Shown here: in pieces, positions 22,112-57,384 of the stretch
Layout: every line of letters starts with the position of its first letter
How positions within the stretch are numbered: the first letter of the stretch is position 1
DNA from: Deltaproteobacteria bacterium
Lineage (GTDB): Bacteria; Desulfobacterota; GWC2-55-46
Reading direction: 5' to 3'
Assembly (NCBI GenBank): GCA_016234855.1
Contig: JACRNO010000057.1
Location: 1-60,829 of the forward strand
DNA: 60,829 bases
Notes under the pieces: generated by a model
What the model was told of the DNA's origin: nothing
Databases searched by the model: none
The model's input: the letters and a program-made list of their open reading frames with translations, nothing else
Translations under genes and position numbers: made by a program

Positions 22112-22445
22112 TCAGGGCTAATCCCCCGACCCACGCCAAGTGGCGTGGGTACCCCGCCCCCTTTTTCAAAGGGCGATGTTTTAAAAATCCCCACTTTGAA
22201 AAGGGGGGCAAGGGGGGATTTTGAGAGAGGTGCGGGGTCGTGAGCAATTGAAGGGCATTCGTAAAAGACCCACTTTAAAATCCCCCTTAGTCCCCCTTCT
22301 ACGAAGGGGGATGTTAAAAATCCCCTTTTTTTTCAAAGTGAGAGGTTTAAGCCCTGAGTCTTCTGTTAGACTTTGGTTAGAGGGTTGTCAGGGCTAAAGC
22401 CCTGAGCTACGGGTAATGACTTTGTATCTCAGACCTTCAGGTCTG
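22112..22445. repeat. Composite repeat: GTAG REP split by a 228-bp C/G-tract repeat insertion, plus further GTAG REPs
   Basis: tcagggcta|22121-22348|aagccctgag; intact tcagggctaaagccctgagctac at 22388-22410; gtatctcagaccttcaggtctg at 22424-22445. Confidence 0.75.
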
Positions 22446-45624: not shown

Positions 45625-45969
45625 CGGTTGCCTCCTTAGAGATTTGGTAATTTGCCCGGCTGACCTTCAAATGTAGTGCTGATTGTGCTAATTATAGCCC
45701 GTATCATAGCCCTCCTGTCAAGTTAAAAATTAAAAAAACTTAATCTTTACAGATCGCGCCACCTGCCGCAGCAGCGGGAACCGATTGCAAGGTCTGCGCT
45801 ACAGGCACACGATTGCCCATGGCGCGCACCGTACCACCGAACCGCCATGCTTATTGAAAATGTGTAAAGAGCTGTGGTATAAATACTGGATTCGCTTTTT
45901 TCACCGCCTGTGCCATTACCAGGGGCGCAAGCGGGGCAAGAAATTTTTTGTATTTCAGGAGGTCTTGGA

Positions 45970-47772
45970 TTGACTGATTCCATCGTCATGGAGCCGCTCG
46001 GCGGCTTGAAAAGGACGTGCTACTGCGGCCAGGTGCGGCCATCTCACATGGGAACGCGCATAACGCTCATGGGCTGGGTGCAAAGGAGACGCGACCACGG
46101 CGGCCTGATATTCATTGATCTCCGCGACCGCGAGGGCGTAGTCCAACTCGTCTTCAGCCCGGACGCCCCGGCCGTGCACGCAAAGGCGCACGACATCAGG
46201 AGCGAATACGTCCTGGCCGTAACCGGAGACGTGCGCATGAGGCCGGACGGCACGCAGAACACGGGCCTTGCAACCGGGCTTGTGGAGGTGGCTGTAACCG
46301 AGCTAAAACTCCTTAACGATTCAGCGCCGCTGCCGTTCATGCTCGAGGACGATACAGACGTATCCGAGATGACGCGGCTTAAGTACCGCTATCTGGATCT
46401 GCGCCGGCCGTCACTGCAAAACAAGCTCGTCTTGCGCCACAAGGTGGCGATGTCCACGCGGAACTACCTCTCTGAGAACGGCTTCCTCGAAATAGAGACC
46501 CCGGTGCTCACAAAATCCACGCCCGAAGGCGCGCGCGACTTCCTCGTGCCGAGCAGGCTCAACCCCGGCGCCTTCTACGCTTTACCCCAGTCGCCGCAGA
46601 TCTTCAAACAGATACTCATGATTGGCGGCTTTGACAGGTATTTTCAGGTGGTCAGGTGCTTCCGCGACGAAGACCTGCGCGCCGACCGCCAGCCGGAATT
46701 CACGCAAATCGACGCGGAGATGAGCTTTGTCGAGGCAGAGGACGTGATAACCGTAATGGAAGGACTCATCAGGCGGCTCTTCAAGGACGGCATCGGCCTT
46801 GAATTGAAGACGCCCTTCCCGCGCCTTACATATAAGGAAGCGGTCGGCAGGTTCGGGCTCGACAACCCGGATGTGCGTTTCGGGCTTGAACTTGTCGACC
46901 TTACCGAGACCGTCCGCAACTGCGGTTTTAAGGTTTTCGATGATACCGTTGCAAAGGGCTGGCCTGTAAAGGCCGTCTGTGCCAAAGGCTGCGCCGAGTT
47001 CTCGCGCAAAGACCTCGACGACCTGACGGCGGTTGCCGTATCCTACGGCGCAAAAGGGCTTGCATGGGTAAAGCTCACAGCCGAAGGCTGGCAGTCTCCC
47101 ATAGCAAAGTTCCTCTCAGACGACGTCAAGGCCGCGATAACAAAGGCGCTCAACGCGGCCACCGGCGACCTCATCCTCTTTGCCGCTGACAAGCCCTCGG
47201 TTGCCAATACCGTCCTCGGCAGGGTCAGGCTCAACATCGGCAACCGCATGGGACTTATCCCTAAGCACGGCTTCAACTTCGTCTGGGTCACGGAATTCCC
47301 GATGCTCGACTATGACGAGACCGAGAAGCGTTACGTGGCCGTGCACCACCCGTTCACCGCGCCGATGGACGAAGACCTTGCAAGGCTCGATACCGACCCG
47401 CTGACTGTACGCGCGAAGGCGTACGACCTCGTGCTGAACGGGTCGGAAATCGGCGGCGGCTCGATAAGAATCCACCGGAGCGACGTTCAATCGAAGGTAT
47501 TCGGCAAACTCGGCATCAGCGAGGACGAGGCGCGGCTTCGTTTCGGCTTCCTGCTCGACGCCCTCTCATTCGGCACCCCGCCGCACGGCGGCATCGCATT
47601 CGGCCTGGACAGGGTCATGGCCATAATGACCGGGTCGGAGTCGATCCGCGACGTCATCGCCTTCCCCAAGACGCAGAAGGCCGCCGACGTGATGAGCGAG
47701 GCGCCATCGACCGTTGACCAGAAACAGCTTGACGAGATTTCGATAAGGGTGGTGAAGAAGAAGGCGGAGTAG
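45970..47772 (+). CDS. aspS: Aspartate--tRNA ligase, probably non-discriminating (Asp/Asn)
   Basis: [15 protein letters not shown] (His variant), [30 protein letters not shown]; AGGAGG SD before TTG 45970. Confidence 0.96.
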
Positions 47773-47805
47773 CGAGGTTGGGATTTACACATCCCCCTTT
47801 CCTAA

Positions 47806-47956
47806 GAGACCTTTGCATAAGTCAGATTTATGTAGCGCAGGCCTTCAGGCCTGCGTCTTTGTCGCAGCGTTCGCTAACGAATAGCAGGGCTAAAGCCCTG
47901 CGCTACGCGCACCGTATACTTCTTTTCTTGAGAAAACACAGTTATGCAAAGGTCTC
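47806..47956. mobile_element. 151-bp MITE carrying a GTAG REPIN (47832-47906), with an 8-bp target duplication
   Basis: TIRs GAGACCTTTGCATAA / TTATGCAAAGGTCTC (15/15); TTTCCTAA at 47798-47805 and 47957-47964. Confidence 0.88.
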
Positions 47957-48113
47957 TTTCCTAAAGGGGGATTGAGGGGAATTATCCCCCCCCTGACAAG
48001 GCGGGCAAGGGACTCCCCCCTTTCCTAAATGGGGGGGGGACTGAGGGGGATTATCCCCCTCCCCTGACAAGGCGGGCAAGGGACTCCCCCCTGATAAGGG
48101 GGGCAAGGGGGGT
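47957..48113. repeat. Tandem ~65-70 bp units of the CCCCCTTT/AAAGGGGG repeat family
   Basis: Two units sharing tttcctaaa...attatccccc...cccctgacaaggcgggcaagggactcccccc, plus a partial third. Confidence 0.85.
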
Positions 48114-48117
48114 TTGT

Positions 48118-48708
48118 TTGATACGCCAAGAAAAAATTGACATTGAACCTATACGATGCGGCTGGGTGAGCGACGACCCGCTCTATATCGCGTACCACGA
48201 CACCGAGTGGGGCGTGCCCGTGCATGACGACCGGCGGCTCTTCGAGTTCCTCATCCTTGAAGGCGCGCAAGCGGGCCTCAGTTGGCTTACCATCCTGAAA
48301 AAGAGGGAGAATTACAGAAAGGCCTTTTCCGGGTTCGACCCTGCGAAGGTGGCCCGATTCAGAGAGGAGAAGATTCAACGCCTCCTGCTCGACCCCGGCA
48401 TCATCCGCAACCGGTTGAAGGTCAGGGCGGCCATAAACAACGCGGCTGCGTTTTTAAAGATACAAGATGAGTTCGGCTCGTTCGCAGAGTACAGTTGGCA
48501 ATTCGTAGGCAACAAGCCCATAAAAAACACCTTCAAAACCATCAAACAAGTCCCCGCCACAACCCCTGAATCCGACTCATTCAGCAAGGACTTGAAAAAG
48601 AGGGGTTTTAAATTCGTCGGCTCGACCATCATCTATGCCCACATGCAGGCGGTGGGCATGGTCAACGACCATACGAAGGATTGTTTCAGATACAAGGAAT
48701 TGAAGTGA
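48118..48708 (+). CDS. tag: DNA-3-methyladenine glycosylase I
   Basis: RCGW, YHDTEWGVP, LEGAQAGLSW, IIRNRLK, GFKFVG, GMVNDH..C. Start uncertain. Confidence 0.95.
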   Translation: MIRQEKIDIEPIRCGWVSDDPLYIAYHDTEWGVPVHDDRRLFEFLILEGAQAGLSWLTILKKRENYRKAFSGFDPAKVARFREEKIQRLLLDPGIIRNRLKVRAAINNAAAFLKIQDEFGSFAEYSWQFVGNKPIKNTFKTIKQVPATTPESDSFSKDLKKRGFKFVGSTIIYAHMQAVGMVNDHTKDCFRYKELK

Positions 48709-48775
48709 AACCTGTAGGTTGACGCAGTGTAACCCGCCAATCGTAATTACAGGACGCGGTGCCTCCCGGAGGCGC

Positions 48776-48795
48776 TCCCACGCCAGAGCGTGGGA
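48776..48795. repeat. Isolated REP-like palindrome
   Basis: tcccacgc-caga-gcgtggga. Confidence 0.5.
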
Positions 48796-48816
48796 ACAAG
48801 GAATTAGGAAAACATC

Positions 48817-50209: not shown

Positions 50210-50470
50210 GCCCCCCTCACCCTGCCCTCTCTCCGAGGGGAGAGGGGGTTTTCTCCTCCCCTTATTTAAGGGGCGGGGCCCCCGTTGCGCGCGCAGCGCA
50301 ATGCAACGGGGAGTGGGGAGGGGTTAATCTTTGCAGCCACAATGCTTGCTTGTTGCTTCGCGCACGCCCAGCTTAACTCCCCCTGCCCCCTCTTTTACAA
50401 AGAGGGGGGAGTTTCGCGCCCCTTGACAACACAGTTGCTCTCCCCGAGGGGAGAGGGTTCTTTCCCCCTT
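50210..50470. repeat. Cluster of C/G-tract palindromic repeats
   Basis: ccctctctccgaggggagaggg, ccccttatttaagggg, cccctcttttacaaagagggg, ctctccccgaggggagaggg. Confidence 0.75.
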
Positions 50471-57265: not shown

Positions 57266-57346
57266 GTAGCGCAGACCTTCAGGTCTGCATTCCTGCCGCA
57301 GCCTGCCGTTGCAAAAAAGGGCTGCAGGGCTAACGCCCTGCGCTAC
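57266..57346. repeat. GTAG-type REPIN
   Basis: GTAGCGCAGACCTTCAGGTCTGC...GCAGGGCTAACGCCCTGCGCTAC. Confidence 0.85.
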
Positions 57347-57384
57347 CCGTCATTATCCGGCACGCGCCGTTTGCGGAGAAAAAA

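Follow-up and report, generated by a model that had tools for sequence, protein, structure and literature searches.

Extragenic palindromes are well-documented targets of insertion sequences (ISs). ISs that target repetitive extragenic palindromes (REPs) include ISRm22, ISPa11, ISPpu9/10 and ISPsy8, with IS3- and IS110-family elements among them (Tobes and Pareja, 2006; PMC1525189). According to that survey, ISRm22, whose enzyme belongs to Transposase_11 (DDE_Tnp_1), has a highly palindromic consensus and inserts on the axis of palindromy with flanking direct repeats, while the IS5-family ISNm1106 (IS1106) is a looser case that shows only a 'type 2' association, near REPs and with no broken REP at the junction (PMC1525189). 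Here we describe a 151-bp MITE (miniature inverted-repeat transposable element) within a 60,829-nt stretch of DNA, hereafter the window (contig JACRNO010000057.1 of assembly GCA_016234855.1, positions 1 to 60,829 of the forward strand), from a Deltaproteobacteria bacterium of the Desulfobacterota lineage GWC2-55-46. The family to which it belongs adds an IS5-type case to the palindrome-targeting elements. Like ISRm22 as portrayed in the survey, the family inserts into a repeated extragenic palindrome at the axis, and unlike ISNm1106 as portrayed there, it has a broken palindrome at the junction. It differs from the REP-targeting ISs covered there in consisting mostly of MITEs, in having a C-run/G-run palindrome rather than a classical REP as its target, and in that one subfamily carries a REPIN.

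By end sequence, the closest described elements are the ISNme1/IS1106-type IS5 elements and the MITEs BrickBuilt and MITEPgRS (Porphyromonas gingivalis). Table 2 of PMC4596501 gives the ends of ISNme1 (Neisseria meningitidis, IS5 family) as GAGACCTTTGCAAAA/TTTTGCAAAGGTCTC and lists BrickBuilt copies with the end GAGACCTTTGCA; the same paper reports duplications for BrickBuilt that are unequal in length and sequence. The end in the window is identical to that of ISNme1 at 13 of 15 positions. In contrast to the BrickBuilt/ISNme1 type, the family described here has a 9-bp duplication characteristic of its lineage and a defined palindrome as its site. A further related system is the REPIN, a REP doublet mobilised by a Y1 transposase (RAYT), in which inverted GTAG REPs are separated by a short spacer and present in many extragenic copies. 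As judged from its sequence, the doublet in our element resembles this system in its inverted GTAG REPs, short spacer, copy number and the presence in the genome of a REP-flanked Y1_Tnp gene, and would differ from it in being passive cargo of a DDE-type MITE. We found no published description of the family in the literature on the end string, on IS5 subgroups or on IS5, MITE and hairpin targets, and the supplements of PMC1525189 on ISNm1106 flanks may bear on the novelty of the target. PMC3454330 holds nothing on IS1106 targets.

The MITE, a member of what we call subfamily A, occupies positions 47806–47956 of the plus strand, as delimited by direct reading, pairing of the ends and alignment; it is non-coding, and only mechanical open reading frames (ORFs) cross it. 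Its left terminal inverted repeat, GAGACCTTTGCATAA, lies at 47806–47820 (plus strand; direct reading and motif counts), and its right one, read directly as plus-strand TTATGCAAAGGTCTC, at 47942–47956 (minus strand). The two ends are identical over 15 nt, mismatched at position 16 (G versus C) and matched again at position 17. On both sides the element adjoins TTTCCTAA, at 47798–47805 and 47957–47964 of the plus strand, a direct repeat of 8 bp, or of 9 bp if the C that precedes the left copy is included; the right copy was identified by direct reading and duplication scoring. A run of CCCCC (47793–47797) precedes this repeat on the left and an A followed by GGGGG (47965–47970) completes the right side, both read directly from the plus strand. 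The palindrome arms CCCCCTTT (47793–47800) and AAAGGGGG (47963–47970), both on the plus strand, were recovered from the inverted-repeat listing, in which the pair ATCCCCCTTT/AAAGGGGGAT is 100% complementary, and from the fold of the rebuilt site. Removal of the MITE and one TTTCCTAA yields CCCCCTTT-CCT-AAAGGGGG, 19 nt that fold into a perfect hairpin whose stem measures 8 bp and whose loop measures 3 nt (−7.1 kcal/mol, z −5.4, folded with DNA parameters). An unsplit paralogue of this palindrome, C6-TTTCCTAAA-T-G9, lies at 48015–48039 on the plus strand (direct reading, repeat listing and fold) and folds similarly, at −6.9 kcal/mol; the 13-nt repeat CCCCCTTTCCTAA is found at both 47793 and 48016. 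Direct reading bears out what an earlier, sequence-only reading of this DNA had claimed in this respect, namely a 151-bp MITE with perfect 15-bp ends, TTTCCTAA on both sides, a split hairpin and an unsplit copy nearby. The locus holds a real and cleanly bounded MITE within a palindromic repeat.

We consider it very probable that this element is a non-autonomous derivative of an IS5-family element, inserted on the axis of the palindrome by a DDE transposase supplied in trans. The enzyme would recognise the 15–17-bp ends, GAGACCTTTGCATAA(S)T, and cut the two strands of a short CCCC-YTTTNAAAR-GGGG palindrome with a stagger that is nominally 9 bp wide and has its centre on the axis; repair of the stagger would then leave the flanking direct repeat. 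An inverted GTAG REP pair would already have been present in the subfamily founder and been copied along with the element. As the target palindrome belongs to an abundant REP-like family, many equivalent landing sites would have been available. The anatomy, the family of copies, the target consensus, the duplication lengths and the full-length relatives that encode an IS5-family transposase are shown by the sequences; that an IS5-type transposase moved this particular copy, that the enzyme itself makes the choice of target, and that events followed the order given here is what we deduce from them.

The choice of target provides the clearest result. The genome under study (G000) is a 2.30-Mb draft in 95 contigs with 56.9% G+C and 94.9% completeness; below, C1, C5, C88 and so on denote its contigs, G001–G024 relatives and L-numbers extracted loci. 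Across 45 ends, the outward flanks share the consensus CCCC(C/T)TTTNAAA(A/G), with its four C at positions −13 to −10, C/T (−9), TTT (−8 to −6), N (−5), AAA (−4 to −2) and A/G (−1). Because this consensus stands at both ends, the unsplit target is a palindrome, CCCC-YTTTNAAAR-GGGG, with the nine duplicated bases at its centre; CCCCCTTTNNNAAAGGGGG is an example with C/G runs and a T/A core. The fit is below 100%: a run of at least four C occurs in 28 of the 45 flanks, as against 3.8% of random positions. At least eight of ten complementary pairs around the centre of the duplication were counted at four of seven G000 sites and at 20 of 45 sites in other genomes among the matches listed, compared with 0.24–0.36% of random sites (0.24% for the G000 comparison); these cases are not independent trials, since the copies are kin and the targets belong to repeat families. 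The G000 assembly contains 139 unsplit sites of the form CCCC-Y-TT-N2-6-AA-R-GGGG, as against two of the mirror pattern and none with the inner arms swapped. The C/G-tract hairpin is a REP-like repeat family in its own right and the landing pad of the MITEs, which are found at the same position of the palindrome and from whose flanks the target consensus can be rebuilt, as in a 'type 1' association. This family-wide target specificity is the result most worth following up. With dozens of insertions, a sharp consensus and about 139 unsplit sites, together with relatives that have identical ends but other targets and duplication lengths, the family offers a clean natural data set on how a DDE transposase chooses palindromes, and a transposase with a 17–19-bp palindromic target could interest the builders of tools for site-directed insertion.

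Unsplit examples of the palindrome can also be seen elsewhere in the window, at 22292–22310 and 50258–50273. Three MITE ends (C12:1032, C26:2707 and C37:2838) adjoin an identical 30-nt flank, aggcgccagatacataacgttagcgcacaa, rather than a C/G palindrome. This flank is part of the GCGCTAACGTTATG repeat that fills some MITE interiors, and these may be nested or composite elements.

The ends recur throughout the genome. The window holds two matches to the 15-mer end at up to two mismatches, compared with 0.09 expected, and the genome-wide search that the sequence-only reading had proposed gave 46 ends at up to one mismatch (24 + 22; reversed control 0 + 0). When up to two mismatches were allowed, 21 head-to-tail pairs of 148–2753 bp and 19 single ends were found. 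All but one of the pairs measure 148–418 bp; the remaining one, of 2753 bp on C88, is probably a chance pairing to judge from its sequence, since it has two mismatches per end and the target features are absent. Alignment of the 20 short pairs showed that only about 17 nt per end are common to them, and that their interiors belong to several unrelated types. Subfamily A comprises eight to nine copies by blast: those in C35, C12, C11, C77, C1 and C62 are 94–97% identical to the window copy, that in C55 is 84% identical, and C91 gives two partial matches (84% and 100%). Other interiors consist of ATTCCCG...CGGGAAT hairpins, GTCATT..GAGCG modules or GCGCTAACGTTATG repeats. The window copy has the IS5-type ends, small size, non-coding content, multiplicity and flanking duplication expected of a MITE, and its interior is made of host REP modules.

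In the window copy these modules are REP 1, a GTAG-headed hairpin GTAGCGCAGGCCTTCAGGCCTGCG at 47832–47855 (plus strand), and REP 2, inverted, with GTAGCGCAGGGCTTTAGCCCTGC on the minus strand at 47884–47906, both identified by direct reading and in the inverted-repeat listing. Each folds as a hairpin, and they face each other in inverted orientation across a 28-nt spacer, which is the structure of a REPIN; the repeat listing gives their inverted arms as 23 nt and 87% complementary. Matches to the pair extend over 75 nt at 97–99% identity in C77, C62, C12, C11 and C35, and over 70 nt at 97% in C1; single REPs of both kinds are found at more than 20 further places in G000. GTAG REPs lie to either side of a predicted Y1_Tnp (IS200-like, RAYT-like) ORF of 166 aa on C88 (G000:C88:23392-23889; L161 1417–1914, minus strand; 5.4e-9). 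One of these REPs matches REP 1 of the window at 100% over 25 nt. A second Y1_Tnp ORF occurs on C5 (G000:C5:15008-15676; L160 1465–2133; 1.6e-16). With scattered REPs and a REP-flanked Y1_Tnp ORF, the label of 'GTAG REPIN' given earlier to the interior is a fair one, and the pair of inverted GTAG REPs is genuine. The arrangement on C88 corresponds to the classical REP/RAYT layout, and stand-alone REP doublets of the same build, 73–76% identical to that of the MITE, are also present in the window at 1337–1414 and 57266–57349.

The same evidence bears on how the nest arose. The sequence-only reading saw three levels and a recent event, which could be understood as a MITE that entered the hairpin and a REPIN that later entered this copy of the MITE. 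The perfect ends and the intact duplication would suit such a sequence of fresh insertions, and because the genome has RAYT-like genes as well as REP singlets and doublets that stand alone, REP mobility is plausible in principle. However, the REP pair occupies the identical position in all eight to nine copies of subfamily A, with conserved MITE sequence on both sides, and a blast search of G000 found no REP-less version of the subfamily, the non-REP parts of the MITE being present only within REP-bearing copies. The shared position contradicts a separate REPIN step at this locus. In G005, which represents another genus, a similar REP pair stands beside the remnant of a MITE end (L169, L170). 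Two levels remain at the locus, with the MITE in the hairpin and the REP pair in the MITE as in every other copy of the subfamily. From the shared position in every copy and the fact that the REP-free parts never occur alone, we infer a single entry of the pair into the subfamily founder, after which the two were copied together. Nor is the insertion shown to be recent, since subfamily copies differ by 3–6% and are only 94–97% alike. The window copy has substitutions of its own, and it shows four differences from a 151-nt contig into which the MITE has collapsed in the probable source run, covered about five times as deeply as the flanks. The perfect ends are unremarkable because they amount to only 30 nt at about 4% divergence. 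A fresh three-step nest is accordingly very unlikely. That REP pairs can ride within a DDE-type MITE matters when REPIN copy numbers serve to infer RAYT activity.

The sequence-only reading also suggested that the mobiliser may be unusual, IS5-family duplications being usually shorter than the 8 bp at this locus, and one could argue that an enzyme of another family made it and that the likeness of the ends to those of IS5-type elements is coincidental or convergent. Such a mobiliser would fit the 8-bp duplication here and the lack of an assembled IS5-type transposase in the genome or the family. Duplication lengths speak against it. Among 15 pairs in G000 (up to one mismatch), duplications of 9 bp were found in five, 8 bp in one (the window copy), 10 bp in one and 0–1 bp in eight, and seven of the 15 have perfect flanking repeats of 4 bp or more, as against 3.5% after random re-pairing of the flanks. 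Thus, 9 bp is the modal length in G000 (five of seven clean cases) and the rule for this lineage. Among the matches listed in other genomes, 64 pairs gave 9 bp in seven, 6 bp in 16, 5 bp in 22 and 0–1 bp in 19, with no 8-bp or 10-bp case among these 64. All seven 9-bp cases outside, again among those listed, come from metagenome-assembled genomes (MAGs) labelled Nitrospina, Nitrospinaceae or Nitrospinales, and they include the full-length element L061, whose duplication CTCTCATGA lies within CCTCCC...GGGGAGG. Relatives of G000 have clean 9-bp repeats at L171, L173, L174 and L175 and imperfect ones at L176 and L172. An unusual mobiliser is superfluous, since 9 bp is the norm of the lineage and the window copy is one base short of it; L061, with a similar target and an ordinary IS5-family transposase, also has 9 bp. 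The shortfall may reflect either a base lost from a homopolymer at the junction (CC or AAA) or a stagger that slipped by one.

The ends themselves point in the same direction. A scan with the 17-nt end GAGACCTTTGCATAAST, with one genome per species, returned at least 125 loci, and the carriers among the matches listed are mostly Dehalococcoidia/Chloroflexota, Nitrospina-type, Desulfobacterales and gammaproteobacterial MAGs. At least five of the loci (L061, L058, L053, L052 and L079) hold full-length elements of 1173–1215 bp with perfect or near-perfect ends. Four of these have one intact ORF each, of 322–343 aa, and in L058 the frame is split into ORFs of 235 and 127 aa. The products of L061, L079 and L053 (314–325 aa) match NCBIfam NF033581, 'IS5 family transposase', with 267–302 bits (cut-off 140), as well as Pfam DUF772 and DDE_Tnp_1; they are 41–52% identical to one another, and among the annotated IS5-family transposases of plasmids none exceeds 42% identity to that of L061. 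Since the same ends enclose NF033581/DUF772/DDE_Tnp_1 genes in full-length elements, the mobiliser is by sequence an ordinary IS5-family DDE transposase. The claim that the ends are of IS5 type is upheld both by the ISNme1 end in the cited table of PMC4596501 and by the exact ends that flank IS5-family transposase genes elsewhere. Closer to G000, in G024 of the same family, the gene-start end of an IS runs off four contigs and the opposite end off at least three more (L002, L005, L006), and the ends carry an ATG and a peptide, MHKRMGQMSLSD..., similar to the beginning of the L079 transposase (MHRDMGQPSLAE...). These run-off ends and the start peptide point to a multi-copy IS that the assembler failed to close. 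With exact 15–17-nt ends around IS5-family transposase genes in five full-length elements, a modal duplication of 9 bp in G000 and IS ends running off at least four G024 contigs, a mobiliser from another family is just as improbable as the fresh nest.

The contig-end loci with this IS in G024 are L001–L003, L005 and L006, and the IS interior is absent from the assembly. Multi-copy ISs often stay unassembled. As the interior is missing, the number of transposases in these MAGs is underestimated. PF05598 matches five loci in G001, G010 and G018, none of which has such ends, and 20 stretches beside unpaired ends in seven relatives contain only partial or degenerate MITEs. At L024, a contig end (G001:C134), an opposite-strand open frame that terminates in ...KYFKHPKISYAA* comes after an end of this type; we rejected this frame as an IS5-type transposase, as it bears no likeness to an IS5-type C-terminus and may belong to a different passenger or element.

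Several observations weigh against a trans-mobilised IS5-family MITE at this locus. The assembled G000 has no matches to PF01609 and none to PF05598, tblastn of the three transposases against it gave nothing better than E 0.4, and blastn of the IS interiors against it matched only the ends. The 94.9% complete assembly contains no autonomous partner, and none of the G000 contig ends that were checked cuts through an element. The L061 transposase had no match at E 1e-10 or better in 36 other genomes of the family, and consequently the partner is inferred from other lineages and from the unassembled IS ends in G024. The search for a transposase between such ends, which the sequence-only reading had recommended, succeeded in other genomes and not in G000. 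Likeness to the full-length ISs stops about 17 nt into each end, and the interior shows no derivation from a parent IS by deletion. Eight of the 15 G000 pairs lack a clean duplication; the other seven have duplications of 8–10 bp, and the REP pair is present in all subfamily-A copies. The duplication in the window is itself one base short of 9. Lastly, neither the contigs of relatives nor the assembled contigs of public runs yielded an empty site, whether orthologous or at the level of reads; among the public-run matches listed, no joint skips the element. In 11 relatives the query is conserved in its aspS part only; the spacer that follows is unrelated in G001, G006, G008 and G004, and the G005 contig terminates there. 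Because the relatives that were searched have an unrelated spacer after aspS, an orthologous empty site is lacking. Judged by the assembly, the window copy is an orphan, and it is probably immobile now, given that no transposase is assembled in G000.

The junctions were considered in the light of a possible assembly artefact, in which a contig was joined through the repeated MITE and the nest is absent in the organism. The draft state of the assembly (95 contigs) and the collapse of the MITE into a 151-nt contig at about five times the flank depth would allow such a join. Among the matches listed, no public-run contig extends across the left junction, and the two genes that flank the MITE do not adjoin each other in the relatives that were searched. 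However, public contigs of the probable source sample bridge the right junction (47932–48019) with no differences, and both flanks share 8 bp and complete one palindrome, which a chimeric join would not yield. The matching duplication and completed palindrome argue that the flanks belong together, and we regard an artefact as very unlikely, slightly more so than the two alternatives above.

The faintest prospect, that the C-run and G-run form extended, imperfect inverted ends of the element itself and that the direct repeat did not arise by target duplication, draws on 37-nt arms, 76% complementary, that take in the C/G tracts and on the tracts being found in nearly all copies, but we ruled out the tracts as part of the element because the 8–10 bases beside the ends are direct rather than inverted and vary among copies (CTATGGAAG, CTTTACAAA, CTTATGAGG, CTTTGAAAA), and because about 139 unsplit palindromes lack an element and full-length ISs of other phyla lie in different palindromes.

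Beyond the trans-mobilised MITE in the window, we tentatively suggest, with somewhat less than even confidence, that these elements form a deep IS5 subgroup with a near-invariant 17-nt end and transposases 41–52% identical, which lands on the axis of host GC-armed palindromes in several phyla, makes duplications of 9, 5 or 6 bp according to lineage, and has MITEs rebuilt from host repeats. A CCCC-N9-GGGG target is found in G000 and in Nitrospina-labelled MAGs. Among the matches listed, Chloroflexota targets are CCCTCTCC-N5-GGAGAGGG, ATTCCCG-N6-CGGGAAT and GTCCCCG-N6-CGAGGAC, although duplications of 5 and 6 bp are indistinguishable in the CCCTCTCC hairpins because a C precedes every 5-bp case. 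Gammaproteobacterial and Desulfobacterales MAG sites among those listed are AT-rich and have no palindrome. As for the idea that the length of the loop sets that of the duplication, the 9 bp in G000 stay centred on the axis regardless of the spacer. If such a subgroup exists, host REP-like repeats and an IS lineage could constitute a long-standing pair of target and parasite, and duplication length would follow the geometry of the target.

Two further observations concern the Chloroflexota. In a Dehalococcoidia MAG (OZ251500.1, about 606.5–616.9 kb; L050–L053), several 142-bp MITEs are clustered with at least two full-length ISs inside about 10 kb, each in its own CCCTCTCC-N5-GGAGAGGG palindrome, so that the palindrome array is a hot spot. 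Elements with 6-bp duplications in Chloroflexota MAGs (L054, L107, L108, L124, L128 and L159) lie in ATTCCCG-N6-CGGGAAT palindromes, and in G000 another MITE subfamily has its interiors filled with the same hairpins, ATTCCCG...CGGGAAT. These hairpins presumably resemble the dRS3 repeats of Neisseria.

The MITE lies in a 345-bp spacer rich in small repeats, which separates two housekeeping genes. Upstream, a gene of the aspartyl-tRNA synthetase type (aspS; 45910–47772, plus strand, 620 aa; ORF and Pfam) has the domains tRNA-synt_2 (3.6e-123), GAD and an anticodon OB fold, and its stop codon is 33 nt upstream of the left end of the MITE. Downstream is a gene of the DNA-3-methyladenine glycosylase I type (48118–48708, plus strand, 196 aa; ORF and Pfam Adenine_glyco, 1.4e-87). 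An Rfam scan of 47000–48800 yielded nothing above any gathering score, and a promoter and terminator scan of the locus gave no meaningful result. The locus by itself changes little, being a dead-looking mini-transposon that separates aspS from the glycosylase gene.

The rest of the spacer is largely made of a unit of about 70 bp on the plus strand, present in about 2.5 head-to-tail copies between 47957 and 48120 (two at 47966–48085) in the repeat listing, with repeats at spacings of 71 (97%) and 69 (89%); Tandem Repeats Finder returned no rows for this region. The first unit has the MITE in its first palindrome. Each unit consists of three C/G-tract palindromes, CCCCCTTTCCTAAAGGGGG, GGGGGATTATCCCCC and CCCCTGACAAGG..GGG, and the module CCCCCTTTTCTAAAGGGGGAYTGAGGGGGATTAT is also present in two genomes of the family (L034 of G015 and L005 of G024). 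The palindrome GCGGGAGCGGGTTTGCAAACCTGCTCCCGC, or its right half, recurs after the aspS orthologue in L164 (G001) and L167 (G008).

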